From Gammaproteobacteria bacterium (GTDB lineage: Bacteria; Pseudomonadota; Gammaproteobacteria; Steroidobacterales; Woeseiaceae), in NCBI GenBank assembly GCA_024640305.1, contig JAHEFG010000001.1:203476-227475 (forward strand): a stretch of DNA of 24,000 nt, given 5' to 3'. The position numbers were made by a program, and so were the translations under genes. Positions within the stretch are counted from its first letter, which is position 1; every line of letters begins with the position of its first letter. The notes under the pieces are model-generated. The model did not search any database, was not told the DNA's origin, and was given only the letters and a program-made list of their open reading frames with translations. Positions 73-21,250 of the stretch are shown here, in pieces.

Positions 73-1662
73 ATGCTTCGAATTCGCCTGTCCCTGCTGC
101 TCGTCCTCTTCGTTTTTTGCCTTTCTGCTTGTGACAACCACAATGCAGTGCCCGAGGTTGCAGAATCTCCGGCGACCGAAGACGAGATCGTAACCCTGCT
201 CTTCACCAATGATGTCGAAAGTGCCTACGACCCGATCCCGGCGTTTTGGCTGGACGATATTTCAATGATCGGAGGGATTGCTGAAATAACAACCCTGATC
301 GAGTCTTTGCGCGAATCCGAACCAAACGTATTTCTGTTTGATTCAGGTGATATTTTCACGGGCGCGCTGGCGAAGCTCACGCTGGGTAAACTCGCTTTCG
401 AACTCATGATTACGATGGGCTACGACGCCATGGCTATCGGCAATCACGAATTCGAGTATGGCCACAGGATTTTTGCGTGGGAGAAGAACAGAGCGCCGTT
501 TCCGGTTCTCGGCGCCAACTTCTTCTACAAAGATACTGACCACCCCTACGCCCAGGCGCATGCGATTATCGAGCGCAATGGCCTGCGCATCGGCGTAATC
601 GGAATCATGGGCCAGGACGCCGTCTCCGCCATCATTCCGTCTTACATCGCCCCACTGGATGTCCGCGATCCGGCTGAGGCGGTTCGCAGGTCGGTTGCCG
701 AATTGCGAAACGAGGTGGATCTTATTGTCCTGCTTACACACCAGGGCAAGACTGCACCGATGCAAACCGACGCGGAATCGGACCCCAGACTACAGCGAGA
801 TATCGACGCTGATATCGCACTCGCGGGCGCTGTCGAAGGCATTGACGTCCTCTTCGCGGGACATGCCGATGCGGGAACACCAGAGCCGCTCGTTCACCCC
901 GAAACCGGAACGCTGATAATGCAGACATATGGGCAGGCAACGCATCTCGGCTATCTGCAACTCAGGCTGGACCGCGAGACCGGCGCCATTACAAGTTACG
1001 ACGGCAAACTGATCCCGGTCGAATCCTCGAAACTTGAGCCGGACCCGAGAATACTCGCCAAGTTAGAGCACTATCGGGACGAGAACGGAGAGATCATGGC
1101 GAAAGTGGGCGCAACAGAAGCCGCCATGATTCGCCGCTACATCGAGGAGTCGGATATCGGCAACCTGTTTGCCGATATTTTCGTGGAAGTCAGTGGTGCT
1201 GATATTGGGTTTGTGCATGGCGGCAGCCTGCGCAAGGACTTACCCAAAGGCGAAATTCGTCTCGTGGATATTCTCGACTCTTACCCGTTTGTCGACGATG
1301 TAAATGTGAAAGAAATGACTGGTGCGCAGATTCGACGCGCGCTGGAACAGTCGCTGACATTCGAGCGCGGGATGCTGCAACTATCGGGACTCGAGATGAT
1401 CTATGACCTGGATCAGCCCAGGTACAATCGGATTGTGTCGCTCAAGCGGAATGGTCAGCCGGTTGCTGATAGCGATCGCTTTACCGTAGCCGCGCCAGGG
1501 TTCCTGACCGAAGGTGGCGACCTTTACGACTCCTTTCCCGAATCTGAAGTGATGCAAAGTTTCGGCAAGGTTTCTGACGTCGTCATCGAACACTTTCGCA
1601 ATCGGGAAGTTGTCAGTCTGCCCAAACGCGGCCGGCAGCAAGAAACCGTAAAAAACCAGTAG
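73..1662 (+). CDS. Lipoprotein 5'-nucleotidase / metallophosphoesterase (UshA/CD73 family: calcineurin-like phosphoesterase domain plus 5'-nucleotidase C-terminal domain)
   Basis: ATG at 73. N-terminal signal peptide with a lipobox (LLLVLFVFCLSAC|DNH). Metallophosphatase motifs are present: SGDIFTG, GNHEFEYG, LLTHQG, FAGHAD. A C-terminal substrate-binding domain follows (GFVHGGSLRKDLP, FTVAAPGFLTEGGDLY). Motif I reads TNDVES, with Glu where the usual DxH His sits. Only 11 bp separate it from the next gene. Confidence 0.85.
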   Translation: MLRIRLSLLLVLFVFCLSACDNHNAVPEVAESPATEDEIVTLLFTNDVESAYDPIPAFWLDDISMIGGIAEITTLIESLRESEPNVFLFDSGDIFTGALAKLTLGKLAFELMITMGYDAMAIGNHEFEYGHRIFAWEKNRAPFPVLGANFFYKDTDHPYAQAHAIIERNGLRIGVIGIMGQDAVSAIIPSYIAPLDVRDPAEAVRRSVAELRNEVDLIVLLTHQGKTAPMQTDAESDPRLQRDIDADIALAGAVEGIDVLFAGHADAGTPEPLVHPETGTLIMQTYGQATHLGYLQLRLDRETGAITSYDGKLIPVESSKLEPDPRILAKLEHYRDENGEIMAKVGATEAAMIRRYIEESDIGNLFADIFVEVSGADIGFVHGGSLRKDLPKGEIRLVDILDSYPFVDDVNVKEMTGAQIRRALEQSLTFERGMLQLSGLEMIYDLDQPRYNRIVSLKRNGQPVADSDRFTVAAPGFLTEGGDLYDSFPESEVMQSFGKVSDVVIEHFRNREVVSLPKRGRQQETVKNQ

Positions 1663-1673
1663 CGAGAATTCTC

Positions 1674-2822
1674 ATGGCGGCGGGCGAACTCGAAATTCAG
1701 GCGGCAGTTGCGCGCAGCAGCGCTGAACCTTTTGTTACCGAGAAACTGTACTTGAAGGCCCCTGCGGCCAACGAAATACGGGTAAAGATCGTAGCTACGA
1801 GCGTGTGTCACACCGACTTAATGACCAAGGGCGAAGCGCTTTGTGAGTTTCCGATTGTTCTTGGCCACGAGGGTGCAGGAGTTGTCGATGCGCTGGGCGA
1901 TGAGGTCACGGAGTTTGATGTCGGGGATCATGTTGTCCTGAGTTACGATTATTGCGGTCGGTGTCGGCAGTGTAAAAATCACAAACCGTCATACTGTGAC
2001 AACCACGGCAGCTTGAATTTCGCCGGCACCCGAGCCAACGGGGACAAAACGCACCGTAGTCCGGATAGTGACGCAGCGGACGTGTTTGGCTCTTTCTTCC
2101 AGCAGTCATCATTCGCAACGTATGCGCTGAGCAATACCAGCAACACGATCAAGGTAGACAAGTCCCTGCCCTTGCCGTTGCTGGCACCGCTGGGCTGCGG
2201 TGTGCAGACCGGTGCTGGCACGGTCCTGAATACACTCCAGGTGCAGCCGGATACCAGTATCGTTGTGTTCGGCTGCGGCTGCGTTGGTCTTTCGGCGATT
2301 ATGGCCGCGAAAGTGGCTGGCGCGAAAAACATCGTGGCGGTGGATGTGAATCCGGCTCGCCTGCAAATGGCTCTCGATCTGGGTGCCAGCCACGCTCTCG
2401 CCCCTGGCGATTTTGCCGAGCCTGGATCAATCGTCGAGCATGTGAAGTCCATTTCGCAAGGCAACGGCTGCCAATACGCAATCGATACTACGGGTGCGCC
2501 CAGCATTCTCCGGCAGGCTTTCGATTGTTGTGGGCCGCTCGGTGTAACGGCGATGATTGCGCCAGGCGTGCCCGGTACGGAAGTCAGTATCGAGATGCTC
2601 GGCTTGCTGCCCGGCAAGTCGCTGCGCGGCGTTATACAAGGCGACTCAGTTTCCAAAACGTTCATACCCAAGCTCATTGAGCTATGGCAGGACGGACGGT
2701 TTCCTTTCGACAGGATGCTTACAAAATTTGCATCGATCGACAGCATTGAAGATGTCGCACAGGCAATGGGTCGCGGCGAGGTTATCAAGCCCGTCGTGAT
2801 TCTGGATCCCGAATTTGACTAA
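1674..2822 (+). CDS. Zn-dependent aryl-alcohol (benzyl-alcohol) dehydrogenase-like, XylB-type medium-chain dehydrogenase
   Basis: ATG at 1674. Motifs CHTDL, GHEGAGVV, the structural-zinc Cys cluster YCGRCRQCKNHKPSYC, FFQQSSFATYAL, PLGCGVQTGAGTV, and the Rossmann motif VVFGCGCVGLSAIMAA. It aligns along its whole length with my recollection of Pseudomonas XylB. Confidence 0.85.
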   Translation: MAAGELEIQAAVARSSAEPFVTEKLYLKAPAANEIRVKIVATSVCHTDLMTKGEALCEFPIVLGHEGAGVVDALGDEVTEFDVGDHVVLSYDYCGRCRQCKNHKPSYCDNHGSLNFAGTRANGDKTHRSPDSDAADVFGSFFQQSSFATYALSNTSNTIKVDKSLPLPLLAPLGCGVQTGAGTVLNTLQVQPDTSIVVFGCGCVGLSAIMAAKVAGAKNIVAVDVNPARLQMALDLGASHALAPGDFAEPGSIVEHVKSISQGNGCQYAIDTTGAPSILRQAFDCCGPLGVTAMIAPGVPGTEVSIEMLGLLPGKSLRGVIQGDSVSKTFIPKLIELWQDGRFPFDRMLTKFASIDSIEDVAQAMGRGEVIKPVVILDPEFD

Positions 2823-2826
2823 CTAC

Positions 2827-4275
2827 ATGAAACTAAATAACAAAGATCTGTTGCTGACCCATGGCTGGATCAACGCAGCGGAGGTTCGCTCGAAGCGACA
2901 ATTCGCTGTCGTGGATCCCGCCACGCGCACAGAAATCGCAATGGTCAGCGACCTTGACGCAACGCACGCTCAGCAAGCAATCGCCGCGGCAACCGCCGCC
3001 TATAGCGACTGGAAAACCGTGCCGTTGCAGGAACGGGTCGATACCGTTCTGCGCTGGGCGGAGCTGATTGAGGAAAATGCCGAAGACCTGGGCGTAATCA
3101 TTTCTGCGGAGAGTGGTAAGCCGCTGCGCGAGGCAAGTGGTGAATCGCTTCAATGCGCTGCGTTGTTACGTTGGTACGCCGACGAAATACAACGGTGGAA
3201 AGAAGACACCAGTCGCGCGCCGATCTCAGGTCAACAGAACTATACGATCAGGCAGCCCATCGGTGTTGTTGCCTGTATTACGCCGTGGAATTTTCCGGCC
3301 GCTGCGGTAATGGTGAAGGCCGGTGCCGCCATCCTTGCTGGCTGCACGACCATAATCAAACCATCCGACCTGACCCCACTTGTCGCCCTGGCATTGGCGC
3401 GCCTGTCTGCTGCCGCAAACCTGCCTGCCGGCGTTTTCAACGTGCTGCCCTGCGAAAACCCGACGCAGATCGGCGACGAGATTTGCAGGAACCCGAATGT
3501 GCGAATGCTTTCTTTTACCGGATCGACCCGCGTGGGCAAGTCCCTTTATAGCGCTTGCGGCGCTACCGTAAAGCGCCTCGCACTGGAATTGGGAGGCAAT
3601 GCGCCGTTCATAATTTTTGATGACGCTGATCTGGACCTGGCGATTGATGGTGCGCTTGGGGCCCGCTTTTATAACAGCGGCCAAATCTGCGTCGGCGCCA
3701 ATCGCTATTTTGTACACAGCAACATCTACGCGACGTTTGCAAGCCGGCTCGCAGAGCGTGTTAACGCGATGAAAGTTGGCAGCGGTTTCGACCCGTCGAG
3801 TGATATTGGCCCGATGATCAACCAGGCCGCGGTAGACCGGTTGACACATGTCATTGAAAGCGCGAGGGAAATGGGTGCCAAAGTACTTGCCGGCGGTGGT
3901 CAGGATGATGCGGCGACACTGTATTTCCAACCCACCGTATTGAGCGACATGACTCCCGACATGCCGGCTTATACGATCGAGATCTTTGGTCCTGTAGCCT
4001 GCCTTTACAAATTCGAAAGCGAAGATCAGGTCGTGACGCTTGCCAATGACACTGAGGCCGGCCTGGCCGCGTACGTCTACTCGCGCGATGCCAGCCGCCT
4101 CGCAAGAGTTAGCGAGGCGTTGGAGGCTGGTGTTGTCGGCGCGAACTCATGCGCAATCTTTTCCAACGACTTGCCGTTCGGCGGCATAAAGCAATCCGGC
4201 CTCGGCCGCGAGCATGGCTCCCAGGGGCTTGAGGAATACATCGAAACGAAAAGTATCTGCAAGGTGTCGCAATGA
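2827..4275 (+). CDS. NAD(P)+-dependent aldehyde dehydrogenase, succinate-semialdehyde dehydrogenase (GabD)-like
   Basis: The ORF track opens at TTG 2815, but ATG 2827 gives MKLNNKDLL..., matching the MKLN start of E. coli GabD. Motifs ITPWNFPAA, the catalytic Glu in LELGGNAPFIIFDDADLD, the catalytic Cys in NSGQICVGANR, and FGGIKQSGLGREHG. Its stop overlaps the next start (ATGA at 4272-4275). Confidence 0.85.
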   Translation: MKLNNKDLLLTHGWINAAEVRSKRQFAVVDPATRTEIAMVSDLDATHAQQAIAAATAAYSDWKTVPLQERVDTVLRWAELIEENAEDLGVIISAESGKPLREASGESLQCAALLRWYADEIQRWKEDTSRAPISGQQNYTIRQPIGVVACITPWNFPAAAVMVKAGAAILAGCTTIIKPSDLTPLVALALARLSAAANLPAGVFNVLPCENPTQIGDEICRNPNVRMLSFTGSTRVGKSLYSACGATVKRLALELGGNAPFIIFDDADLDLAIDGALGARFYNSGQICVGANRYFVHSNIYATFASRLAERVNAMKVGSGFDPSSDIGPMINQAAVDRLTHVIESAREMGAKVLAGGGQDDAATLYFQPTVLSDMTPDMPAYTIEIFGPVACLYKFESEDQVVTLANDTEAGLAAYVYSRDASRLARVSEALEAGVVGANSCAIFSNDLPFGGIKQSGLGREHGSQGLEEYIETKSICKVSQ

Positions 4276-4844
4276 CGATGGAACAGCAAAGCTGTCGCTC
4301 AGCCTGGATGCACATGAGTGCGGCCAGCAAGGGGCAACAAGTACGCAATTTCGTCCAGCTATTGGATATGAGCGACTACCTGGTCGAGACAGAGCTCTTT
4401 CCCAGGGAGGTGCTGGAGGCGTACAGCGCATTCAATATGGAAAAGGAAATTACCGCCGAGCATGCGCAGTATGTGAACGAGCAGCGGGGCGGCTCACAGG
4501 GCGATTATCGCGAAGGCATGGCGCGCAAGGTTGCAAACGTGGTGGATTGCCTGGTCCGCTATCCGCAATCAAAACGCGCGGTGATTACTGTTTGTAACGA
4601 GCCTATGCCTGACCACAGCGATGATACAAATGCCAAGTGCCTCCGCGAACTGCACCTCTACCTGGACGAGGAGAACAAGCTAAGCGGTACTGTGTTCTTC
4701 CGGGCTCAGGCAGCTTTTCTGTTTCCGAAAAATATTCACCTGGTCGGTTCGATAATGTCGGAGATAGCCCGACAGCTACCGCAACAACCGGCTTTGGGGA
4801 GCCTGTTCTACCTGGCAACGGTACTGGTGGCGGATCGAAGCTAG
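4272..4844 (+). CDS. Truncated thymidylate synthase / dCMP-hydroxymethylase-fold protein, function unknown
   Basis: By eye, residues 97-170 align to the ThyA catalytic core. YPQSKRAVITVCNE matches DPDSRRIIVSAWN. AKCLRELHLYLDEENKLSGTVFFRAQAAFL-FPKNIHLVGSIM matches [40 protein letters not shown]. The nucleophile Cys (C123, nt 4638-4640), the YQR Arg and the PFN Asn are retained. The GDTHLY segment, about 55 C-terminal residues and much of the N-terminal folate-binding region are missing (190 aa against about 264). It is translationally coupled to the upstream ALDH. Confidence 0.5.
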   Translation: MTMEQQSCRSAWMHMSAASKGQQVRNFVQLLDMSDYLVETELFPREVLEAYSAFNMEKEITAEHAQYVNEQRGGSQGDYREGMARKVANVVDCLVRYPQSKRAVITVCNEPMPDHSDDTNAKCLRELHLYLDEENKLSGTVFFRAQAAFLFPKNIHLVGSIMSEIARQLPQQPALGSLFYLATVLVADRS

Positions 4845-4860
4845 GCTGTACGAGCCACCG

Positions 4861-5790
4861 TCAAACTCTCTCCTCGACACCATTCAGGTCGCACATAGCG
4901 CCTAATGCGATACTGATGGCGCTCTCTATGCTGGCCGTGTAATCGAGAATTGCTGTGCTGGCTGTCGGTTTGCTGATGATGGGACATATGGTGCCAACCA
5001 GGCAGCCTAAATGGCCGGCAACATGAAACAGTAAGCTTGACTCCATTTCCATATTGACGACTCTTTGTTCCTGTACCCGCAGAGCAGAGAGCTGTGTCTT
5101 GATGGACGGGATTGTATTCGCAAGCCCCTCTATGTATCGACTGGACGGCCCGTAGAAACCCGGTGTCGCTGCAGTGATCCCGGTAACGTAATCGACATTC
5201 AGAAATTTCGCGCGTTCAACCAGTGCGGCCGCTACGCCCGGCGAGGCCTTGGAGGCATAAGGGATTATTTTGCTTCTAAACCTGGAGCCCTCCGCCGTTG
5301 AGTTCACAAGTATCTCAAATGCTTGCTGCTCAATTTCAGTGACGACCTGGTCCGCTGGCGGATGGTCGTAGTATAAACCGGCATTATCCAGGCCCAACGC
5401 ATAAGTCGATATCGCCATCGTTCCGGGTTCGATATTTTCCTGGGTTCCTGCGGAGGTTCCGATGCGGATAAATTTCAGCGGCGCTGTTCCCGACTGATAC
5501 TCGCTACTGTCAAGATCGAAGGCATGCACCGCGTATGCCTCCACCAGCGCGATTTCGACGTTATCGACTCCGATGCCGGTGCCAATAACAGAAACCGGCA
5601 CGCCCTTGTAACTACCTGTAAAAGTGACGTATTCGCGGTGTCTTACTTCGGCACTCACAGTATCGAAGCGCTTCGCCACCCGCACCGCCCGAGCCGGGTC
5701 GCCCACCAGGAAAACATTTGCAGCCAGCTGCCCCCTGGTCAGACCAAGATGCAAAACCTTGCCGTCAATGACTACGATCTCTGATTTCAT
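4861..5790 (-). CDS. Nucleoside phosphorylase, uridine phosphorylase (Udp)-like (PNP_UDP_1 family), long variant
   Basis: ATG at 5790. LHLGLTRGQLAANVFLVGDPARAVRVAKRFD, HREYVTFTGSYKGVPVSVIGTGIG, FIRIGTSAGTQ and NMEMESSLL correspond to E. coli Udp FHLGLTKNDL..VPGDPDRV, HREFTTW..GKPVIVCSTGIG, FLRIGTTGAIQ and NYEMESATL. At 309 aa against about 253, it carries two insertions. It is convergent with the TS-fold gene, 16 bp apart. Confidence 0.8.
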   Translation of the reverse strand: MKSEIVVIDGKVLHLGLTRGQLAANVFLVGDPARAVRVAKRFDTVSAEVRHREYVTFTGSYKGVPVSVIGTGIGVDNVEIALVEAYAVHAFDLDSSEYQSGTAPLKFIRIGTSAGTQENIEPGTMAISTYALGLDNAGLYYDHPPADQVVTEIEQQAFEILVNSTAEGSRFRSKIIPYASKASPGVAAALVERAKFLNVDYVTGITAATPGFYGPSSRYIEGLANTIPSIKTQLSALRVQEQRVVNMEMESSLLFHVAGHLGCLVGTICPIISKPTASTAILDYTASIESAISIALGAMCDLNGVEERV

Positions 5791-5840
5791 ACTAAAAATA
5801 CCCGGCCAGTAAGAAATATGTTAATGAAGATTATTACACT
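5791..5840. promoter_or_regulatory. Short AT-rich divergent intergenic region between the Udp-like gene and the kinase-Qng1 fusion gene
   Basis: Only 50 bp separate the two divergent start codons, and this is the most AT-rich stretch in the island (ACTAAAAATACCCGGCCAGTAAGAAATATGTTAATGAAGATTATTACACT). It must hold, or overlap, both promoters. No confident -35/-10 assignment was possible. Confidence 0.35.
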
Positions 5841-12801: not shown

Positions 12802-14244
12802 GTGAAAAATACTCCAGGAATTGTTGCGCTTCTTGTCGTTTCCGCGGCCATGTTCGCTTGCTCACCGCAAGAAGATGCGCTTCCAACCGCAACGGTCACG
12901 CAAGCGGCAAATCAGATCGATCTGATCGTCAACGGCGACTACATAGTGACGATGGATGATGCCGCCACTGTCCATGCAGGCGCGGCTGTCGCCATCGATC
13001 AGGGCGTTATTATCGCCATCGGGCCGGCCGCCGAAATTGCCGCAAACTACAGCGCAAGTGAGACTCTCGACGGCCAGGGTCGCGTCGTGATGCCCGGCCT
13101 GGTCAACGGCCACTCGCACGCAGCCATGACTTTGCTTCGCGGCGTCGCCGACGACCTCGCGCTGATGGACTGGCTGACGAATTACATTTTTCCCGCCGAA
13201 GTAGAATTCGTCGATGCAGAGTTTGTTCGCATTGGCACCGAGCTGGCTTGCTGGGAAATGATTCGCGGCGGCACAACCACATTCGTCGACATGTATTACT
13301 ACCCTGACGTGATCGCTGATGTGGTCGAAAAGTGCGGCATGCGTGCCCTGGTCTCGGCGACCGTAATCGATCAACGCAGCCCCGATGCCGAGAGCGCTGT
13401 CGATTCCATTCAGAAGGGCAAAGAATTCGTCAATCGCTGGCAAGGCAGGAACAGTCGCATTTCGCCCATATTCGGGCCGCATGCCAATTACACGCTGAAC
13501 GCAGAACAGTTGCGTGCAACGCGGGCGGCGGCAACCGAGGCCGGCGTACCGGTCAGCATTCACATGTCGGAGTCGCCGTTCGAAGTACAGTATTCAAAAG
13601 ATACCTTCGGCGTGACAAGCATCGAGCTTTTCGAGTCCATCGGCTTTTTCGACGGACCAACAATTGGGGCGCATGTCGTTTGGCCGACCGAGGCCGAAAT
13701 ATCGATCCTCGCCAAGCGCAACGTCGGCGTTATTCATAATCCAACCTCGAACATGAAAATTGCTTCGGGCATTGCACCTGTCACCGATATGCTGGCTGCC
13801 GGAGTCAGGGTGGGTCTCGGTACGGATGGAGCAGCCAGTAATAACGATCTCGATATGTGGGAAGAAATGCGACTCGCATCTTTCCTGCAGAAAGTGGAAC
13901 AAATGAACCCGGAGGTTCTTCCAGCGGCCACTGTATTGCGCATGGCTACTATCGGTGGGGCTACTGCGATCGGGCTCGGCGAATCTATTGGTTCCCTGGA
14001 GGTTGGCAAACGCGCCGATCTTATCCAGGTCGCGTTTGACGATGTTCACCATGTTCCAACCTACGATGTGATTTCTCACCTCGTCTACGTCACTGATGAG
14101 CAGGACGTCGCCTCGGTTGTTGTCGATGGCACACTGCTGATGCGCGACAAAGAATTCCTGACAATTGATACAGAGCGCGTAGCCGAAGAGGCCCGGACTC
14201 TGGCCGCGAATATTAAACGTGCGCTGGAAGAGAGAAACCGCTGA
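12802..14244 (+). CDS. Amidohydrolase-superfamily deaminase-like enzyme (MtaD / TrzA-AtzA / guanine-deaminase-like subgroup), probable lipoprotein
   Basis: Motifs VMPGLVNGHSHAAMTLLRG (HxH metal motif), SIHMSES, HVVW, HNPTSNMKIASG and GLGTDGAASNN (the catalytic Asp region). The start is ambiguous among TTG 12784, GTG 12802 and ATG 12850. GTG 12802 gives MKNTPGIVALLVVSAAMFAC|SPQ, a signal peptide with a lipobox-like Cys. ATG 12850 would give a cytoplasmic protein. Confidence 0.8.
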   Translation: MKNTPGIVALLVVSAAMFACSPQEDALPTATVTQAANQIDLIVNGDYIVTMDDAATVHAGAAVAIDQGVIIAIGPAAEIAANYSASETLDGQGRVVMPGLVNGHSHAAMTLLRGVADDLALMDWLTNYIFPAEVEFVDAEFVRIGTELACWEMIRGGTTTFVDMYYYPDVIADVVEKCGMRALVSATVIDQRSPDAESAVDSIQKGKEFVNRWQGRNSRISPIFGPHANYTLNAEQLRATRAAATEAGVPVSIHMSESPFEVQYSKDTFGVTSIELFESIGFFDGPTIGAHVVWPTEAEISILAKRNVGVIHNPTSNMKIASGIAPVTDMLAAGVRVGLGTDGAASNNDLDMWEEMRLASFLQKVEQMNPEVLPAATVLRMATIGGATAIGLGESIGSLEVGKRADLIQVAFDDVHHVPTYDVISHLVYVTDEQDVASVVVDGTLLMRDKEFLTIDTERVAEEARTLAANIKRALEERNR

Positions 14245-14675
14245 TGTTGCGTAATGGTTTGGCAATCGTTATTGGCATCATTACGGCATTCGTCACGGTA
14301 ATGCTCATCGATAAGGTCGGGCACATGGTTTACCCCATACCTGCCGGCCTCGACCTCACTGATCCGGACGCGATACGCCCCTACCTCGCAACGCTGCCAG
14401 TCGGTGCGATTTTATTCGTCCTGGCATCGTCCGTAGTCGCCGCTTTTGATGGCACTCTCATTGCCTGCTTGATCGGCAACATGAAGGCGCGCGTATCTGG
14501 CTCCGTGGTTGGCGGTTTTGTTTTTGCAGCGTCAGTCGCTAACTTCATTGCCATTCCGCATCCGCTCTGGTTGGCGCTCGCGACACTGGCGGGCGTGGTC
14601 CTGAGTACCTTGCTGGCGATGCGCCTGGCAATCGCGATTAGCGGAACCCAACCCCGTGACGGCAATCCAGGATAA
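14244..14675 (+). CDS. Small integral membrane protein (about 4 TM segments), function unknown
   Basis: Its ATG overlaps the amidohydrolase stop by 1 nt (TGATG). There are four hydrophobic segments: AIVIGIITAFVTVMLI, VGAILFVLASSVVAAF, VVGGFVFAASVANFIAI and LALATLAGVVLSTLLAM. I recognise no family motifs. Confidence 0.6.
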   Translation: MLRNGLAIVIGIITAFVTVMLIDKVGHMVYPIPAGLDLTDPDAIRPYLATLPVGAILFVLASSVVAAFDGTLIACLIGNMKARVSGSVVGGFVFAASVANFIAIPHPLWLALATLAGVVLSTLLAMRLAIAISGTQPRDGNPG

Positions 14676-15114
14676 CTTCAAAGACAATCATTGCTATGGC
14701 TGCGGTGCCGATAACCCGCTTGGCATGCAGATCAAGAGTCACTGGGATGGCAAAATATCAACCTGCACGTATGTTCCGCGCCCTGAGCAAAGTGCGGGGC
14801 CAACACACCTGCTGTACGGCGGCGCAATCGCCAGTCTCATCGACTGCCATAGTGTTGGCACAGCCATCGCCAACTACTACGACCTGGAAAAGCGCGACAT
14901 TGGAACAGATCCGCAAATCTGGTGCGTAACGGGCCGGCTTACCGTGAATTACCTGAAACCGACGCCGATAGATCAACCCGTTGAACTGCGCGCAGTCGTT
15001 AAACAGTGCGCTGAGAAAAAGACCATTCTGGAATGTACCGTAAGCTCAGGCGGTGAGGTCACCGCCCAGGGCGAAGTCATCGCTGTGCGCGTCCCCTACT
15101 CCTGGCGAGAATAG
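14656..15114 (+). CDS. PaaI-like hotdog-fold thioesterase with N-terminal Cys-x-x-Cys element
   Basis: GTG start at 14656, overlapping the upstream gene by 20 nt. NHCYGCGADNPLGMQIK is the typical N-terminus of this thioesterase subgroup. LLYGGAIASLIDCHSVG is the hotdog active-site region. Confidence 0.75.
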   Translation: MTAIQDNFKDNHCYGCGADNPLGMQIKSHWDGKISTCTYVPRPEQSAGPTHLLYGGAIASLIDCHSVGTAIANYYDLEKRDIGTDPQIWCVTGRLTVNYLKPTPIDQPVELRAVVKQCAEKKTILECTVSSGGEVTAQGEVIAVRVPYSWRE

Positions 15115-15126
15115 GCAGACACCGAA

Positions 15127-16326
15127 CTAAAGAAAATTCGTGCCGTAGTCCATTGGCGGCAGATCAAAAAACGTCGCGATACTCTGGCCAATATCGGCAA
15201 AGGTCTTGCGCTTACCCAAGGCACCGGCAGTAACACCTGCGCCATACGCCAACACCGGAATGTGTTCGCGAGTGTGGTCAGAGCCGGGCCACGTTGGGTC
15301 GCAACCGTGGTCGGCACACAGGAACAGCACATCGTCATCCTGCATGATGTCCAGCAACTCCGGAAGACGCTGGTCAAAGTACTCCAGTGCCTTTGCGTAG
15401 CCGTCTACGTCGCGTCGGTGGCCGAACAACATGTCGAAGTCGACGAAGTTGGTGAATACGATAGTGCGATCTCCGGCGGCACGCATTTCATCCAGCGTCG
15501 CATCGAAAAGCGCTGCATTGCCCGTCGCCTTGATTTTCTTCGTAATGCCCCGGTGCGCGTAGATATCGGCGATCTTGCCAACACTTACGACATCGCCGCC
15601 ACTGGCTACCAGCTTGTCCAGCACGGTATCTGCATGTGGTGGAGTCGTGAGGTCACGGCGATTGCCCGTACGAACATAAGTATCAGGACCGTCGCCAACG
15701 AACGGTCGCGCAATCACTCGACCGATGTTGTACTCGTCTACAAGCTCTCTCGCGATGTCGCAAAGGTCATAAAGGCGTTGCAGACCGAATGACTCTTCAT
15801 GGCATGCAATCTGAAACACGCTGTCGGCGGACGTATAGAAAATCGGCTTACCTGACGCTACATGCTCATCACCAAGTTCCTGAATAATTGTTGTTCCCGA
15901 CGCGTGGCAGTTGCCAAGATACCCCGGCAATTGCGCACGAGACACCAACTTATCGAGTAACTCCTGCGGAAAGGTATTCGTTTTTCCGGTGAAGTAGCCC
16001 CAATCGAATAACACCGGGACACCTGCAATTTCCCAGTGTCCACTGGGTGTGTCCTTGCCACTCGAAAGCTCTTCGGCAAAACCATAGGCACCGACAATGT
16101 CAGTGTCGGTATCTACACCAGCGGGAAACTCGCCCGAGCTATCACGGCCTGCGTGGAACAAACCGAGTTTGGCAAGGTTCGGCAAACGCAACGGGCCAGC
16201 TGGTGAAGCTGCACGTTGCTCCGCGATGTGCCCCAGAGTGTTTGCCCCCACATCACCGAACCGCTCGGCATCAGCCGTTGCGCCGATGCCGAAGGAATCA
16301 AGTACCAGAATTATTGCTCTGCCCAT
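15127..16326 (-). CDS. deoB: Phosphopentomutase
   Basis: ATG at 16326. [36 protein letters not shown] is the classic DeoB N-terminus. Alkaline-phosphatase-superfamily metal motifs are present ([39 protein letters not shown]). Confidence 0.93.
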
Positions 16327-16340
16327 GGCTCTACTCTAAC

Positions 16341-16370
16341 AAAATAAAAGGCCCGGTTTCCCGGGCCTTT
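16341..16370 (-). terminator. Rho-independent terminator of the cytochrome oxidase operon
   Basis: A perfect 10-bp GC-rich stem (AAAGGCCCGG 16347-16356 pairing with CCGGGCCTTT 16361-16370) has a 4-nt loop. On the minus strand it is followed by TTTTATTTT (16349-16341). It lies 24 bp downstream of the subunit IV stop codon. Confidence 0.8.
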
Positions 16371-16393
16371 GCTATTCAATACTTGCGGCCCTG

Positions 16394-16741
16394 CTAGTGG
16401 TGCGGCGCCACGACTTCAAGCTCGCTTTCGCCGAAGACCTCGAGGCGCGTGTCCTCGATGTAATCACCTTCCAGTGCCATCAGCCAAATAAGTACAAGGA
16501 TCGCAACAGGTGGGCCCAGGATCGCCAGCTTCAGGGCAGGTCTTTCCCATTTCATATGCATGAAAATCGCGATGATGAAGCCTGCCTTCAGGAACATGAA
16601 TAGCAGGATCAACCCCCAGCGGAGATTGCCCTGAAAATTCATGTAGTCGACCATATAGGAAAAGAAACTCAGTACAAACAACAGGCCCCAAATCCAGAAA
16701 TAGACACTGAGAGGGTGTTGCTGGCCTTCTTCACTTGCCAT
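16394..16741 (-). CDS. Cytochrome c oxidase subunit IV family protein (prokaryotic COX4 type)
   Basis: ATG at 16741. A 115-aa protein with 3 TM segments and the motif FLKAGFIIAIFMHMKWE, typical of bacterial oxidase subunit IV. It is the last gene of the oxidase cluster. Confidence 0.75.
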   Translation of the reverse strand: MASEEGQQHPLSVYFWIWGLLFVLSFFSYMVDYMNFQGNLRWGLILLFMFLKAGFIIAIFMHMKWERPALKLAILGPPVAILVLIWLMALEGDYIEDTRLEVFGESELEVVAPHH

Positions 16742-16762
16742 GTTTGCGGCTCCTGACTTCTC

Positions 16763-17434
16763 TTACCAGAGATAGAAAAATGCGAAAATGAATACCCAGA
16801 CGAGGTCAACGAAATGCCAGTACAGACCCGTGATCTCAACGATTTCGTAGTTGCCACCCCGCCGCTCATAGAAACCGTTACGCACGCGGTTAGCTACGAC
16901 GAGTAGATAGATGACACCGGCCGACACGTGCAGTCCGTGGAAACCCGTGATCATGAAGAAACTGGACCCGAATTGCGCAGCACCAAATGGATTGCCCCAT
17001 GGGCGCACGCCCTCCATTATTAGCTTTGTCCACTCGAACGCCTGCATGCCGACGAATGATGCGCCGAGCGCTGCTGTTGCAACCATAAGCCAGAACGTTT
17101 TCTTGCGATCTTTGCGATAGCCCATGTTCACGGCCATCGCCATAGTGCCCGATGACGTAATAAGAATGAACGTCATGATGGCGATCAAGATCAGCGGGAT
17201 CGGGTCACCACCAAATGACAGAGCAAAGACCTCACTCGGCAGCGGCCACGGATCGGTCGTTGATATACGCACCGACATATAGCCCACAAGGAAGCAACTG
17301 AAGATGAATGTGTCACTGAGCAGGAATATCCACATCATCGCCTTGCCCCACGGGACGCCAAACACCTGCTTGTCCCTGGAGAAGTCGTTGACGATGGTAT
17401 TCGCGTCGCCCGCTTCCACTACCGCTTCTGACAT
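16763..17434 (-). CDS. Cytochrome c oxidase subunit III
   Basis: FFMITGFHGLHVSAGVIYL and LYWHFVDLVWVFIFAFFYLW are subunit III signatures. The ORF track starts at TTG 17446. ATG 17434 (MSEAVVEAG...) is preferred. Confidence 0.85.
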   Translation of the reverse strand: MSEAVVEAGDANTIVNDFSRDKQVFGVPWGKAMMWIFLLSDTFIFSCFLVGYMSVRISTTDPWPLPSEVFALSFGGDPIPLILIAIMTFILITSSGTMAMAVNMGYRKDRKKTFWLMVATAALGASFVGMQAFEWTKLIMEGVRPWGNPFGAAQFGSSFFMITGFHGLHVSAGVIYLLVVANRVRNGFYERRGGNYEIVEITGLYWHFVDLVWVFIFAFFYLW

Positions 17435-17462
17435 AGTTAACCCCAAATCAAATCGACAGCAC

Positions 17463-18122
17463 TCAAGTCGATATCATCAAACCAAACAAGACTAGCCACA
17501 CGAGCAACAGGAAATGCCAATAAATTGTGCAAAGTTCGACGCTTTGCCTGACAGCATCATTGTCGCCACCCATCGCTTTCGTCGTCGCACGTGCCCAGAC
17601 ATACAAACCACCCAGAATATGCAGGCCGTGCAGCCCCGTTAACAGGTAGAAGAATGCGGCTGACGGGTTGCTCGTTAAGTAATGCCCTGTAGCGGTCAAT
17701 TGCTGCCAGGCAATTAGTTGCCCCACCAGAAACCCGACGGTCAGCAACCCTGTTAATAACAGGCCCGGCACCAGTGACGACGCATCGCGCCGCATCGCTT
17801 TGTTGCGGGTCCACTGCAAAGTAGCACTCGCCAGCACAAGCGCGCCCGTATTTACCCAGAGTAGTTGCGGCTCGGTCAGTGGCACCCAATCGCCAAGGTC
17901 CATGCGCAGCGAATACGCACTGAGGATGAGCGCGAAGAACGACGTAATTACTGCAAGCAGCGTCGTTAGCGCGACCAACTTCGGCCCTGCGTTAAACGGC
18001 GCCTGGTGGTCGGCGTCCGGAGTCACTTCTGCTACCCACGGCTGCGTATTGAATGACTGCCGAAGTATCCACCCCAGTAGTGCGGCGAGCATTGTCGCCA
18101 ATACGATTAGGCCGATTTCCAC
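17463..18122 (-). CDS. Second haem-copper oxidase subunit III-family protein (CoxO/CoxP-like paralogue)
   Basis: GTG start overlapping the subunit I stop (TAGTG). FFYLLTGLHGLHILGGLYVW and IYWHFLLLVWLVLFG are subunit III signatures. Five TM segments. Confidence 0.75.
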   Translation of the reverse strand: MEIGLIVLATMLAALLGWILRQSFNTQPWVAEVTPDADHQAPFNAGPKLVALTTLLAVITSFFALILSAYSLRMDLGDWVPLTEPQLLWVNTGALVLASATLQWTRNKAMRRDASSLVPGLLLTGLLTVGFLVGQLIAWQQLTATGHYLTSNPSAAFFYLLTGLHGLHILGGLYVWARATTKAMGGDNDAVRQSVELCTIYWHFLLLVWLVLFGLMIST

Positions 18123-19885
18123 TAGTGGTCTTCTTCGTGATCACGCCCGACCGGCGCAATGTCCGGTGGCACGTTTTGCGGAATGAAATCATCAGCGTAT
18201 CCGGGCACGCTGTAGTCATACGCCCAGCGATGGCAGGTTGGCAGGTCGTGGCCCCAGTTGCCATGTTTCGGCGGAGTGTCCGGTGTCTGCCATTCCAGCG
18301 AGGTGGCATCCCAGGGGTTCGGATCAGCCTTTGGCCCTTTCTTCAGGCTCCAGATCACATTCACAAAGAACAGGATTTGTGCGGCTGCCACAAACAATGC
18401 CGAGACGGTAATGGCGGCATTAAGATCCTGCGCAGAAGCAGGCAGGAAGTCGGTATTGCCCATTGCGAAGTAGCGGCGCGGCACGCCCTGGAAGCCCAGG
18501 TAGTGCATTGGCAGGTATATCGCATAGGTACCGAGGAACGTCATCCAGAAGTGCCACTTGCCGAGCGTCTCGTTGTACATCTTGCCTGTTATTTTTGGCC
18601 ACCAGTGATAGATAGCGCCAAATACGACCAGGATCGGCGAGACGCCCATGACCATGTGGAAATGAGCAACGACGAAATAAGTATCAGACAGCGGCAAATC
18701 GATCGTGACGTTGCCGAGGAACAACCCGGTCAAACCGCCATGGAGGAACGTAAAAATAAAACCTATCGAGAACAGCATCGGCACCCTGAGATGGATATTG
18801 CCCTCCCATAGCGTCAACACCCAGTTATAAACCTTAATTGCCGTCGGCACCGCAATGATCAGCGTCGTCGTTGCGAAGAAGAACCCGAAGTATGGATTCA
18901 TGCCACTGACGTACATATGGTGTGCCCAGACGATAAAGCTCAGGCCACCGATCGCGATGATGGCCCAGACCATCATGCGGTAACCGAAAATGTTCTTGCG
19001 CGCGTGCGTGCTCAGAAGGTCGGACACGATGCCGAAGGCCGGCAACGCGACGATATAGACCTCCGGGTGACCGAAGAACCAGAACAGGTGCTGGAACAGG
19101 ATCGGGCTACCGCCTGTGTAGCCGGGATCCATGCCTGCCGAACTGATGGCTGGCATAAAGAAGCTCGTGTGCAGCGTCTTGTCGAACAACATCATAATGG
19201 CGCTAACGAGCAAGGCGGGAAACGCAAGCAGACCCAGGATCGTTGCAATAAAAATGCCCCAGACCGACAGCGGCATGCGCATCAATGTCATACCGCGGCA
19301 GCGAGCCTGCAGCACTGTTGTGATGTAGTTAAGGCCGCCCATCGTAAATGCAACGATGAATACACCCAGCGAAGCAAGCATCAATATAATGCCCCACTCC
19401 GTGCCCGGCGTACCGGCCATAATTGCCTGTGGTGGATACAGCGTCCAACCCGCCCCCGTCGCACCGCCGGGGACGAAAAAACTAATCAGCAGAATAATGA
19501 CCGACAGCAGATATACCCAGTAGCTGAGCATATTCAGGTACGGGAACACCATGTCCCGGGAACCGACCATAAGTGGGATCAGGTAATTACCAAAGCCACC
19601 AAGGAACAGTGCAGTCAGCAGGTAGATCACCATGATCATGCCGTGCATCGTGACAAACTGGTAATAGTTCTCTGGGTTGATGAATGAAAACGAGTCGGGG
19701 AAGCCAAGTTGCAGGCGCATCATCGCCGATAGACACAATGCGATCAGGCCGACAAAGATCGCCGTACAACCGTACTGGATTGCGATGACTTTGTGGTCCT
19801 GGCTCCATACGTACTTGCTGATGAACGTTTGCGGATCGTGATGCTCGATTTCGTGGTCACGATCGGCGATTGCAACGTATCCCAT
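18122..19885 (-). CDS. ctaD: Cytochrome c oxidase subunit I (A1-type haem-copper oxidase)
   Basis: ATG at 19885. FWFFGHPEVYIVALPAFG is the helix VI motif with the conserved Glu and cross-linked Tyr. Also WAHHMYVSG and VVAHFHMVM. 587 aa with about 12 or more TM segments. Confidence 0.95.
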   Translation of the reverse strand: MGYVAIADRDHEIEHHDPQTFISKYVWSQDHKVIAIQYGCTAIFVGLIALCLSAMMRLQLGFPDSFSFINPENYYQFVTMHGMIMVIYLLTALFLGGFGNYLIPLMVGSRDMVFPYLNMLSYWVYLLSVIILLISFFVPGGATGAGWTLYPPQAIMAGTPGTEWGIILMLASLGVFIVAFTMGGLNYITTVLQARCRGMTLMRMPLSVWGIFIATILGLLAFPALLVSAIMMLFDKTLHTSFFMPAISSAGMDPGYTGGSPILFQHLFWFFGHPEVYIVALPAFGIVSDLLSTHARKNIFGYRMMVWAIIAIGGLSFIVWAHHMYVSGMNPYFGFFFATTTLIIAVPTAIKVYNWVLTLWEGNIHLRVPMLFSIGFIFTFLHGGLTGLFLGNVTIDLPLSDTYFVVAHFHMVMGVSPILVVFGAIYHWWPKITGKMYNETLGKWHFWMTFLGTYAIYLPMHYLGFQGVPRRYFAMGNTDFLPASAQDLNAAITVSALFVAAAQILFFVNVIWSLKKGPKADPNPWDATSLEWQTPDTPPKHGNWGHDLPTCHRWAYDYSVPGYADDFIPQNVPPDIAPVGRDHEEDH

Positions 19886-19897
19886 ACGGCTATCCTA

Positions 19898-21250
19898 TTA
19901 AAGCGTGTTTATGTAAGCGACGAGATCATTGATAGCCTTCTCGTCGCGAGCGACGCTGGCCATCAGTCCCATTTGAAATCCGTAATAGTCCGACAAATGC
20001 GAACCGCGAATTCCTTCCCTGAAGTTCTCAAGCTGCCGCGCGAGGTACCAATCTGACATTCCGGCCGCACGAGGTGCATTCATTGCCCGAATCCCCTGCC
20101 CGTCCGCACCGTGACAATAGGAACAGACGCGGTACAGCTTCTCGCCGTTGCCGACATCGCCTGCAACGGTCGACGGAGCCGGGTTGTCTGGCAATGTCTC
20201 AATGTGTGCAATGACGTTATCGATAGCAGCGTCATTCACCAACGTTGCAGCCATTGGCGCCATTTGCTTGCCAAACACGTCGTCAGCATGAGCGCCTCGA
20301 GTACCGCTCTTGTAATTCTGTAACTGGCGCTTCAAATACCAACTGCTCTGACCTGCAAGCTTGGGTGCGTTCAATGCCTGCATACCCTCGCCCTGCTGAC
20401 CGTGACACGCCGCGCATACAGCGAATTGCGCGGCGCCAACCTGGGCATTGCCAGCGGCTTTCATGCTGTCTTGCGCCCATGTGGATTGCTTCGCAATCCA
20501 GCTCGCATAGTCTTCCGGTTCGTCGACCACGACTGCGCCACGCATAGTGTGATGAGCAATACCGCAAAGCTCCTCGCACAAGATTTCGAAGCGACCCAGT
20601 TTCGTAGGCGTTAACCAGAGAAACGTCTCCATGCCCGGAACGAGATCCATCTTGACGCGAAATTGAGCCACTGCGAAATCGTGTAATACGTCCTTGGAGC
20701 GCAGCAGGAATTTGACCGGTGTATCAAGCGGAACATGCGCTTCGGCGCTATAGACGAGGATGTCGTCCTGGCCATTGGGGTCATCCGGATCCATGCCAAA
20801 CGGATTTTCGTCGGTAATACGCTCGGCATCGACTTCACCGAACTTGCCATCGTCGCCCGGATATCGAAACGTCCAATGCCATTGCTGACCAACGGCCTCA
20901 ACCTCGATGGCATCTTCGGGAACATTGACGAAACTTGCCCAGACAAACAGTCCCGGGGCTAGCATCGCCGCAACACCAACCGCTGTTATAGCGGTGAGCC
21001 ACGTTTCCAGTTTCTTATTCTCCGGCTCATAGGTCGCGCGAGCGCCTTTCTTGTACCGGAATTTGATGATGCAGTACGCCAGGAAGAGGTTTACAAGGAC
21101 AAAAACAGTGCCGGTAACCCAAAACGTAACGTCGATCGTGAAATCGATCAGGCCCCAGTTGGAGGCCAACTCGGTAAACGTCCAGGGACTAAGAAGGTGA
21201 AAAACAACGGAACCGACAACGAGCAGAATCAAGACAACAGCTAAAGGCAT
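19898..21250 (-). CDS. coxB: Cytochrome c oxidase subunit II with two fused C-terminal c-type cytochrome domains
   Basis: Two N-terminal TM helices, QQWHWTFRYP, and the CuA site HDFAV...CEELCGIAHHTM. Two haem c motifs follow (CAACHG and CSYCHG), each with a downstream Met-containing segment (GKQMAPM, GFQMGLM). Confidence 0.92.
   Translation of the reverse strand: MPLAVVLILLVVGSVVFHLLSPWTFTELASNWGLIDFTIDVTFWVTGTVFVLVNLFLAYCIIKFRYKKGARATYEPENKKLETWLTAITAVGVAAMLAPGLFVWASFVNVPEDAIEVEAVGQQWHWTFRYPGDDGKFGEVDAERITDENPFGMDPDDPNGQDDILVYSAEAHVPLDTPVKFLLRSKDVLHDFAVAQFRVKMDLVPGMETFLWLTPTKLGRFEILCEELCGIAHHTMRGAVVVDEPEDYASWIAKQSTWAQDSMKAAGNAQVGAAQFAVCAACHGQQGEGMQALNAPKLAGQSSWYLKRQLQNYKSGTRGAHADDVFGKQMAPMAATLVNDAAIDNVIAHIETLPDNPAPSTVAGDVGNGEKLYRVCSYCHGADGQGIRAMNAPRAAGMSDWYLARQLENFREGIRGSHLSDYYGFQMGLMASVARDEKAINDLVAYINTL

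Follow-up and report, generated by a model that had tools for sequence, protein, structure and literature searches.

A candidate modular locus for nucleoside and nucleotide scavenging, with a kinase–glycosylase fusion, in a Woeseiaceae genome

The 24,000-nucleotide stretch analysed here (the window; positions 203,476 to 227,475 of contig JAHEFG010000001.1, assembly GCA_024640305.1, forward strand) comes from a gammaproteobacterium of the family Woeseiaceae. Fourteen consecutive open reading frames (ORFs), labelled g1–g14, occupy positions 73–16326 of the window. An earlier note on this DNA had described them as an island of genes with nucleoside- and nucleotide-acting folds that would form a dedicated route for a modified nucleoside. 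The coordinates of all 14 ORFs and the domain calls were confirmed by matches to Pfam, NCBIfam and solved structures, together with AlphaFold2 (AF2) models and Foldseek searches. On balance, we lean towards the view that the region is a variant of a conserved, modular nucleoside- and nucleotide-scavenging locus of Woeseiaceae-like Gammaproteobacteria from marine sediments. The region contains the following features:

73–1662, + strand: g1, 5'-nucleotidase, exported lipoprotein with UshA-like domains (Pfam Metallophos and 5_nucleotid_C)
1674–2822, + strand: g2, zinc-dependent alcohol dehydrogenase (ADH) of the benzyl/aryl-alcohol-dehydrogenase type (Pfam ADH_N and ADH_zinc_N; structure 1f8f)
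2827–4275, + strand: g3, NAD(P)-dependent aldehyde dehydrogenase (ALDH), SSADH-like (Pfam Aldedh, 532 bits); the ORF opens with TTG at 2815
4272–4844, + strand: g4, mini thymidylate-synthase-fold protein of 190 aa (AF2 and Foldseek)
4861–5790, − strand: g5, divergent NP-I (Udp-like) nucleoside phosphorylase (Pfam PNP_UDP_1), divergent from g6
5859–6695, + strand: g6, N-terminal half, PfkB/ribokinase-family kinase domain (Pfam PfkB, 63 bits)
6696–7640, + strand: g6, C-terminal half, Qng1-like/EndoIII-like helix-hairpin-helix (HhH) glycosylase domain (Pfam Q_salvage, 30.7 bits; profile alignments)
7691–9196, + strand: g7, NADP-dependent ALDH of the Vibrio harveyi/KGSADH type (3v4c, 742 bits; 1eyy, 447 bits)
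9241–10191, + strand: g8, LysR-family regulator (Pfam HTH_1 and LysR_substrate)
10197–11063, − strand: g9, YjjW glycyl-radical-enzyme activase (TIGR04041, 349 against a cut-off of 250)
11035–12570, − strand: g10, YjjI glycyl radical enzyme (TIGR04040, 722 against a cut-off of 498)
12784–14244, + strand: g11, exported lipoprotein, MtaD-type deaminase-like amidohydrolase (Amidohydro_1, 262 bits)
14244–14675, + strand: g12, hydrophobic membrane protein of 143 aa (hydropathy scan; no family match)
14656–15114, + strand: g13, small hotdog/4HBT-like protein (weak 4HBT match, 22 bits)
15127–16326, − strand: g14, phosphopentomutase DeoB (NF003766, 570 against a cut-off of 256)
16347–16370, − strand: terminator-like hairpin between the cytochrome oxidase operon and deoB (10-bp stem with seven G-C pairs, followed by a T-run)

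The tight packing of the genes described in the earlier note follows from the coordinates. The g1/g2 gap is 11 bp, g3 and g4 share an ATGA overlap, and overlaps of 1, 20 and 29 nt join g11 to g12, g12 to g13 and g9 to g10, respectively. The aryl-alcohol dehydrogenase (g2) and the two ALDHs (g3, g7) are interleaved with the nucleoside genes, as had been proposed. The starts of three genes probably need minor correction: g3 at ATG 2827, giving the 482 aa called in related locus L001; g6 at TTG 5859, giving 593 aa as in nearly all homologues; and YjjI at GTG 12570, giving 511 aa, where a GGAG-like site precedes the GTG. Six to seven of the 14 genes are nucleoside-related, which has a binomial probability of about 2e-6 if about 3% of genes are assumed to be such.

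Loci encoding homologues of the g6 fusion were fetched, and homologues of all 14 genes were tabulated in them; the set comprises 84 fusion loci with about 1.3 Mb of flanks, and L-numbers denote fetched related loci. In the gammaproteobacterial relatives the fusion is 61–87% identical to g6, with the closest relatives, of the L001 type, at 87%. Among the 14 gammaproteobacterial loci with long flanks, g1 adjoins or lies near the fusion in 11, while the g2–g4 cassette is kept in nine and g11 in seven. The gene order in L003 and L015 is g1-g2-g3-g4-dioxygenase-g5-g6-g11-g12-g14, and in L017–L019 genes for a xanthine/uracil permease and a NUP purine-nucleoside permease separate g6 from g11 in an otherwise identical order. 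In L004 and L013, g6 is followed by an inverted g2-g3-g4-g1 block. Shorter arrangements are g1-g6-g7 in L014 and g1-g6-permease-NUP-g11-g14, without the ADH–ALDH–mini-TS cassette, in L088; in L016 only g1 adjoins g6, and in L087 a g7-like ALDH is divergent from g6. No gene separates g1 from g6 in L014, L016 and L088, and the two lie close together in L004 and L013. The position of deoB is conserved in L003, L015, L017–L019 and L088.

The core of the locus is formed by g1, g11, g5, DeoB and the 593-aa fusion, and modules vary around this core. The retention of partners in rearranged loci argues for functional coupling over inherited order alone, and the conservation of adjacencies through several independent rearrangements backs the claim of a functionally coherent nucleoside and nucleotide locus. 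Upstream of g1, genes for A_deaminase-like (adenosine/AMP-deaminase-like) and exonuclease-like proteins are present in L001, L017, L019 and L088, and a larger number of loci have PhyH and HAD genes in that region, so that the locus continues past the left end of the window.

The neighbourhood is conserved beyond this genome, contrary to one of the refuting conditions of the earlier note, but the conservation is confined to one family: in Chloroflexota and other phyla, 64 loci were examined and none of the island partners accompanies the fusion. When ORFs within 8 kb of the fusion were clustered, no ORF family occurred in more than 11 of these 64 loci, and the families found there are housekeeping ones (holA, Dus, SurE, ClpB, ABC transporter). 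The occurrence of the fusion in unrelated contexts indicates that it does not require the other island genes. In one Woeseiaceae metagenome-assembled genome (L086, 8001–12153), the fusion is flanked by a fatty-acid-hydroxylase-family gene, a radical SAM protein gene (Zn_ribbon_HMPTM) and a methyltransferase gene.

Two proteins of the core, the nucleotidase g1 and the deaminase-like amidohydrolase g11, carry lipoprotein signal peptides, encoded at 73–140 and 12784–12870. The lipobox of g1, LSAC, is conserved in every homologue checked, and that of g11 in seven of seven. Because the lipoboxes are conserved, both enzymes are predicted from sequence to work outside the cytoplasm. The score of g1 against the UshA equivalog model NF007109 is 177, below the cut-off of 600, and its assignment stands at the level of the Metallophos and 5_nucleotid_C domains. 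Similarly, g11 scores below the cut-offs of the MtaD equivalog models (PRK09045, 488 against 540; PRK07228, 375 against 522). Its best solved relative is the 5'-methylthioadenosine (MTA)/S-adenosylhomocysteine (SAH) deaminase 4f0r, which matches the whole catalytic domain with 328 bits, and its NCBIfam matches include 5'-deoxyadenosine deaminase. Other solved relatives (4dzh, 4gbd, 4dyk) were deposited as amidohydrolases or uncharacterised proteins. An exported deaminase of the MtaD family is unusual. The membrane protein g12 has three to four hydrophobic segments and matches no family in Pfam or NCBIfam; its homologues follow g11 in L003, L015 and L017–L019. The small protein g13, which has a CxxC motif near its N-terminus, is lineage-specific, with homologues only in L090 and L091, loci that share the arrangement of the window.

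The genes g2, g3 and g4 abut or overlap and move as a block, the order and strand of which differ in L004 and L013. In comparison with solved structures, g2 scores highest with benzyl alcohol dehydrogenase (1f8f, 326 bits), above class III ADHs (about 205–221 bits), and the label aryl-alcohol dehydrogenase is therefore right. The ALDH g3 reaches 537 with TIGR01780, below the cut-off of 646. No Pfam, NCBIfam or thymidylate synthase (TS) family model matches g4. However, its AF2 model, with a pLDDT of 85, is superimposable by Foldseek with template modelling (TM) scores of 0.77–0.80 on AfhB (9iqu), MilA (5b6e, TMq 0.80), T4 dCMP hydroxymethylase and ThyA. In the hhalign alignment with E. coli ThyA, C123 of g4 corresponds to C146, K101/R102 to R126/R127, R144 to R166, and N154 to N177. 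In contrast, D169 and S167 of ThyA are replaced by alanines, and g4 has 190 residues against 264, the C-terminal part being gone. Asn177 of TS selects uracil over cytosine (PMC13326640). Since the equivalents of the cysteine, arginines and asparagine are kept while Asp169 and the C-terminus are lost, g4 looks like a uracil-nucleotide-binding TS-fold enzyme that has retained the nucleophilic cysteine without the usual folate site.

The g4 family has about 545 proteins, the best 120 of which, as listed, are at least 62% identical to g4. The few relatives among the listed matches that carry a taxon name belong to Gammaproteobacteria or Woeseiaceae. A phage origin of g4 was considered and rejected, because the viral fold matches are ordinary TS and dCMP hydroxymethylase homologues and no relative was found in viral contigs. 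In L085 (8877–10567), a g4 homologue with 67% identity forms a pair with an ADH beside a B12-binding radical SAM gene, and this pair stands without ALDH, nucleotidase or fusion. The ADH is therefore the most constant partner of g4.

In seven loci (L003, L012, L015, L018, L019, L103 and L119), the gene following g4 encodes a 2-oxoglutarate (2OG)/Fe(II) dioxygenase similar to thymine-7-hydroxylase (T7H). The best solved match of this dioxygenase is the Neurospora T7H (5c3p, E=1.7e-43). The Fe ligands, the 2OG ligands (R190, Y194, R286, S288) and the base-stacking Y217 and F292 are kept. The T7H residues N87 and E122, whose contacts are with N1 and O2 of the free base, are not conserved. Fungal thymidine salvage, by T7H and iso-orotate decarboxylase, runs through the same oxidation series (PMC4787775, PMC6305744). 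By analogy, the g2–g4 cassette would fit a pathway in which a C5 methyl or hydroxymethyl group is oxidised step by step and then removed.

The cassette raises the question of whether the island in its entirety is dedicated to a C5-modified pyrimidine nucleoside, such as thymidine or the 5-hydroxymethyl-(deoxy)uridine of phage or dinoflagellate DNA, with the nucleotidase, kinase–glycosylase, phosphorylase and DeoB all serving that single substrate. We consider this improbable. The uracil-type asparagine, catalytic cysteine and phosphate-binding residues of the TS fold in g4, the benzyl-alcohol-dehydrogenase type of g2, the cohesion of the three genes, the thymine-dioxygenase-like gene of the seven related loci and the fungal precedent (PMC4787775) all speak for such a pathway. 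Nevertheless, L088, L014 and L016 have no cassette and the core genes persist there, g11 is an adenosine/MTA-type enzyme, a permease for purine nucleosides is encoded by relatives, the glycosylase keeps an aspartate that in Qng1 reads a guanine-like edge, and the T7H-like gene is missing from the window. The C5-substituted pyrimidine suggested in the earlier note thus has indirect support as the substrate of the g2–g4 cassette, but not of the island as a whole.

Databases contain more than 1000 relatives of the fusion protein g6, almost all with a length of about 593 aa. One scan of species-representative genomes found relatives in at least 166 stretches, from Woeseiaceae, many Chloroflexota, Neomarinimicrobiota, Zixibacteria, Gemmatimonadales, Spirochaetota and Caldithrix. 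The fusion is thereby present in at least 166 species of several phyla, with Chloroflexota as the largest share. An exhaustive search gave 415 representatives at 50% identity, including stand-alone Qng1-like forms of about 320 (310–340) aa, which share the terminal tail and the four-cysteine motif with the fusion. Since stand-alone forms exist, fusion to a kinase is one of several architectures within a broader uncharacterised family. No paper describing the fusion was found in the literature searched.

The N-terminal half of g6 belongs to the PfkB kinases, with a match of 63.3 bits against a cut-off of 25.8 and invariant DPTGAGD and NxxE (N171..E174) motifs. Its best Foldseek matches are the nucleoside kinases 3kd6 (Chlorobium), 3b1q (Burkholderia) and 2c49 (M. 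jannaschii), together with ribokinases. The AF2 model of g6, built from 14 sequences, is good for the kinase half, but its pLDDT is below 50 over much of the C-terminal domain, and a fold search of the PDB with the model gave kinases only. The mapping of the glycosylase active site therefore rests on sequence alignment.

The C-terminal half matches Q_salvage weakly, with 30.7 bits against a cut-off of 25 and over profile positions 7–131 of 285 only. A profile of the family aligns with human QNG1 (7ugk) with E=3.7e-8 over the N-terminal half of the glycosylase domain only. The motif C-x7-C-x2-C-x5-C is invariant in the domain and was seen in all 20 aligned representatives, including stand-alone forms. 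Further invariants, among 20 + 20 diverse members, are the HhH lysine in GGYKEDPLRKK, D-Y-H, D-W and the terminal tyrosine in (T/S)FY. When the domain was aligned to E. coli Nth by hhalign, VDYH fell on VDTH of Nth, the motif of catalytic Asp138, and the four cysteines aligned with C187, C194, C197 and C203, the Fe-S ligands of Nth; the similarity is weak, with a probability of 48%. The glycosylase domain of g6 is probably [4Fe-4S]-bearing, judging from this motif.

The similarity to Qng1 is the basis for the queuosine-type 7-deazapurine proposed in the earlier note, according to which the fusion would phosphorylate queuosine or a related 7-deazaguanosine and release queuine, and the island would be dedicated to this salvage. 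Qng1 is marked as a mononucleotide glycosylase by its terminal-carboxylate tail and its 5'-phosphate pocket; the carboxylate of the terminal tyrosine completes the active site, and an Asp-Trp pair reads the guanine-like edge of the base (PMC9881137). The HhH lysine, Asp-Tyr, Asp-Trp and terminal tyrosine tail are all kept in g6, and the Q_salvage and human QNG1 matches also speak for the proposal. The real substrate of Qng1 is the 5'-monophosphate, and the kinase that supplies it is a gap stated in the Qng1 literature, so that a fused kinase would fit the logic of the pathway. Furthermore, the genes around the fusion in Chloroflexota are housekeeping and tRNA genes, Dus and SurE among them. 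However, the residues of the cyclopentenediol/aminomethyl pocket and of the proton relay are replaced in g6 (D69 by T, N72 by Q, Y93 by A/S, W94 by F/D, W302 by F; Sphaerobacter numbering, from the alignment to human QNG1). The entire g6 family has the Fe-S-type four-cysteine motif, and the words iron, Fe-S, 4Fe and cysteine are all absent from the Qng1 paper (PMC9881137). No homologue of tgt or queA is present in any of the 84 fusion loci. The neighbours, a benzyl-alcohol-type ADH, ALDHs, a uracil-type TS-fold protein and an adenosine-type deaminase, do not point to 7-deazaguanine either. Since the specificity residues are replaced and tgt and queA are absent from the flanks, queuosine salvage is a doubtful explanation that we rate as quite unlikely.

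The region between the fusion and the deaminase is occupied by g7 and by the LysR-YjjW-YjjI module. The ALDH g7 has the catalytic motifs ELGS and GQFCTNPG and adjoins the fusion in three arrangements, those of the window and L001, of L014 and of L087. In L001, a gene for a 986-aa TonB-dependent receptor (13732–16692) lies between g7 and the LysR gene, where the window has a 44-bp gap (9197–9240). YjjI passes the NCBIfam cut-off, as does YjjW, and has the glycyl RVTG motif, which agrees with the family's RVxG, and an adjacent activase. It is 60% identical to E. coli YjjI, an unusually high value for hosts so distantly related; this suggests that the module is under strong constraint or was transferred horizontally. 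In E. coli K-12 (L089, 6681–9066), yjjW-yjjI is divergent from deoCABD, so the link to the deo operon given in the earlier note is correct, and the two genes have the same 29-nt overlap as in the window.

The note had counted YjjI/YjjW as a component of the island, and a survey of 80 metagenomic YjjI loci speaks against this. YjjW is present in 76 of them and is the only universal partner of YjjI; the other neighbours are lineage-specific. Island genes occur in only five of the loci (the window type, L103, L119 and L125), and in L103, L119 and L125 the LysR-YjjW-YjjI module lies between the fusion and permeases, without g7. The LysR gene adjoins yjjW in ten of the 80 loci, some of which lack the other island genes. 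The module occurs with the island in only some lineages and mostly in other contexts, and YjjI/YjjW is therefore a mobile insert at a junction of the locus. The LysR protein g8 was rejected as a regulator of the whole island, because it travels with YjjW and YjjI. The enterobacterial YjjI loci contain deoCABD, and in 11 marine loci (L107, L109, L110, L114, L115, L117, L118, L122, L124, L127 and L131) a class II aldolase gene is located downstream of yjjW, accompanied in eight of them by a gene for an IF-2B/MtnA-like isomerase. The aldolase and MtnA-like set resembles the dihydroxyacetone phosphate (DHAP) shunt for 5-deoxyribose and methylthioribose and may hint at the role of YjjI. The repeated association of YjjI is with pentose-phosphate genes of nucleoside catabolism and with no particular base.

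The DHAP shunt is also the pathway model for a salvage of the S-adenosylmethionine (SAM) by-products MTA and 5'-deoxyadenosine, in which the deaminase would be followed by the phosphorylase and pentose-phosphate steps, and the ADH and ALDHs would act on the resulting aldehydes. This explanation accords with the MTA/SAH deaminases among the best solved relatives of g11, with its matches to 5'-deoxyadenosine deaminase and with the aldolase and isomerase genes of the 11 marine loci. In the Woeseiaceae-like L087 (1–7900), the fusion and the g7-like ALDH are also near IF-2B (MtnA-like), PNP_UDP_1 and Aldolase_II genes, a methionine-salvage-like set, and this context links the fusion to pentose-phosphate metabolism. 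However, an MtnA-like isomerase, an aldolase and MtnK are all missing from the window, the exported lipoprotein g11 is ill-suited to intracellular disposal, a 5'-kinase cannot, on chemical grounds, act on 5'-deoxy or 5'-thio nucleosides, and the TS-fold protein would have no role. SAM by-product salvage is thus very unlikely.

The phosphorylase g5 scores 113 with the Udp equivalog model TIGR01718, below the cut-off of 280, and only its membership of the PNP_UDP_1 superfamily is established; among solved structures, it is closest to the putative nucleoside phosphorylase 3bje (119 bits). In contrast, g14 exceeds the cut-offs of both DeoB models (NF003766, 570 against 256; TIGR01696, 541 against 341). 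The Pfam and NCBIfam scan confirmed that deoA, deoC, deoD and cdd are absent from the window, because its remainder consists of a cytochrome c oxidase operon, an extracytoplasmic function (ECF) sigma factor gene and a symporter fragment. The oxidase operon (16394–21250, − strand) contains two consecutive COX3-like genes (16763–17446 and 17463–18122) and also encodes COX2 fused to cytochrome c domains; its place beside deoB is kept in L003 and L088. The possibility that deoB is the tail of this operon is ruled out by the hairpin at 16347–16370, which separates it from the oxidase subunit IV gene, and deoB is therefore a transcription unit of its own. In a scan of the window for promoters and terminators, the counts were not above the shuffled expectation, and this hairpin, which was the strongest site, was the only convincing element.

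The slimmest chance is that the genes form no functional unit, being neighbours by shared descent with a theme that arose by coincidence of separate small operons: this would explain the equally conserved but unrelated oxidase operon beside deoB, the presence of at least six transcription units on both strands and the occurrence of the fusion, g4 and YjjI elsewhere without the others, but it is contradicted by the retention of partners in rearranged loci (g1 and g6 in five arrangements; the inverted cassette still adjoining g6 in L004 and L013), by insertions at the same junction elsewhere that are also nucleoside-related (NUP, xanthine/uracil permease) and by an enrichment of nucleoside functions far above chance.

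The exported nucleotidase, the adenosine-type deaminase and the permeases of the relatives fit general scavenging with add-on modules, and the single dedicated modified-nucleoside route of the earlier note is not supported. From the observed folds, motifs, signal peptides and neighbourhood patterns, we infer the following substrates and reactions for the scavenging locus. Outside the cytoplasm, g1 would strip phosphate from nucleotides derived from nucleic acids, and g11 would turn adenosine-type nucleosides into inosine-type ones. Nucleosides or bases would then be taken up; for this step the relatives encode NUP, a xanthine/uracil permease or a TonB receptor, and the only candidate in the window is g12. 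Two cytoplasmic routes may follow. In the first, the Udp-like phosphorylase g5 and the phosphopentomutase g14 would lead to pentose. In the second, the kinase domain of g6 would produce the nucleoside 5'-monophosphate, and its Qng1/EndoIII-like domain, probably with a [4Fe-4S] cluster, would hydrolyse the N-glycosidic bond to give the base and (deoxy)ribose-5-phosphate. Most plausibly, g2, g3 and the folate-independent g4 would act stepwise on the C5 side chain of a uracil nucleotide, from hydroxymethyl to formyl to carboxyl, followed by removal through attack of the cysteine at C6. In many relatives, the T7H-like dioxygenase is encoded together with the cassette. In this lineage, g7 and LysR-YjjW-YjjI, inserted between the fusion and the deaminase, would add an anaerobic reaction.

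Several observations weigh against the proposed scavenging locus and its cassette. Part of the synteny reflects shared descent, as the oxidase operon, which is unrelated, is equally kept beside deoB. The fusion stands alone, in housekeeping surroundings, in the 64 loci from outside the Gammaproteobacteria and also in certain loci of Woeseiaceae (L010/L086), and homologues of g4 occur also without ALDH or fusion, as an ADH and g4 pair in L085 and alone elsewhere. The window encodes no 2OG dioxygenase, with only 16 bp between g4 and g5, and the second-best solved relative of the dioxygenase, an ethylene-forming-type enzyme, scores almost equally to T7H. The ATP-consuming route through kinase and glycosylase appears redundant with the phosphorylase and DeoB. 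Because the AF2 model of the glycosylase domain is poor, the mapping of its active site depends on sequence alignments of modest significance. Finally, an Rfam search of the whole window gave no match at E<=1, neither to a riboswitch nor to another ligand-reporting RNA.

Extracellular nucleic acids form large pools in marine sediments, and Woeseiaceae rank among the most abundant bacteria there. The way in which Woeseiaceae harvest these nucleic acids would be described by a conserved locus that encodes an exported nucleotidase and an exported deaminase. Nucleoside catabolic clusters are already well known; what would be new here, as far as sequences and models tell, is the family of fusions of a kinase with a putative Fe-S glycosylase, the apparently folate-independent mini TS-fold protein in an oxidation cassette, and the predicted exported MtaD-like deaminase. 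A bolder, two-part proposal is that g6 and its relatives are the founding family of kinase-coupled [4Fe-4S] mononucleotide N-glycosylases between Qng1 and EndoIII, and that the cassette, joined in relatives by the T7H-like dioxygenase, is a bacterial route for taking the C5 methyl or hydroxymethyl group off thymine-type nucleotides, with the folate-independent mini-TS protein as a decarboxylase that works by cysteine addition at C6; that both parts hold together is unlikely. The fusion ties the Qng1 family to Fe-S DNA glycosylases and suggests a kinase family that feeds Qng1-type enzymes. If this is true, the fusion would be a "Rosetta stone" for Qng1-type salvage through a PfkB-type kinase, the step missing in eukaryotic queuosine salvage. 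A folate-independent TS-fold protein in an oxidation cassette would give new chemistry to a classic superfamily, which was recently shown to include flavin-dependent hydroxylases. The placement of YjjI beside deoCABD in enterics, beside DeoB here, and beside an MtnA-like isomerase and aldolase in other marine bacteria is a lead to its function.

The individual parts of the locus can be compared with known systems. The g4 protein resembles the TS superfamily (ThyA, T4 dCMP hydroxymethylase, the MilA CMP hydroxymethylase and the phage dCMP hydroxylase AfhB) in its fold, catalytic cysteine, phosphate-binding arginine and lysine, and equivalents of Arg166 and Asn177. However, members of that superfamily sit in nucleotide biosynthesis or phage modification clusters, whereas g4 belongs to an ADH–ALDH operon. 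The chemistry proposed by analogy for the cassette, from methyl or hydroxymethyl through formyl and carboxyl to uracil, would be that of fungal thymidine salvage. The fungal pathway has genes for T7H and iso-orotate decarboxylase, neither of which is present in the window, where the only amidohydrolase is of the deaminase type; the dehydrogenases and the TS-fold protein would here replace steps 2–3 of T7H and the decarboxylase.

The E. coli deoCABD and yjjI-yjjW region shares with the window the DeoB equivalog, YjjI/YjjW with their 29-nt overlap, and nearby pentose-phosphate genes. The window differs in having no deoA, deoC or deoD, a divergent Udp-like phosphorylase, and YjjIW as a variable insert. 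The deaminase g11 is similar to the MtaD-type enzymes, which act on MTA, SAH, 5'-deoxyadenosine or adenosine, across the whole catalytic domain, and differs from them in its conserved lipoprotein signal peptide and in a score below the equivalog cut-off.

The glycosylase domain of g6 has in common with Qng1/QNG1 (DUF2419, PF10343) the two-lobe HhH fold, the HhH lysine, the catalytic Asp-Tyr, the Asp-Trp and the terminal-tyrosine tail, and is distinguished from it by the PfkB fusion, the four-cysteine motif and the replaced residues of the queuosine pocket and proton relay. With the [4Fe-4S] HhH glycosylases of the endonuclease III/MutY type, it shares the VDxH aspartate and four cysteines in register, although the first cysteine spacing is x6 in EndoIII and x7 in g6. 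EndoIII acts on DNA, whereas the N-terminal half of the glycosylase domain, its terminal tyrosine tail and its fusion to a kinase suggest that g6 acts on a mononucleotide. In E. coli, YeiC is a pseudouridine kinase and YeiN a pseudouridine-5'-phosphate glycosidase. These are two separate polypeptides, and YeiN has a fold unrelated to g6 and cleaves a C-C glycosidic bond, but their logic is like that proposed for g6: a PfkB-family kinase followed by a glycosidase that yields the base and ribose-5-phosphate.

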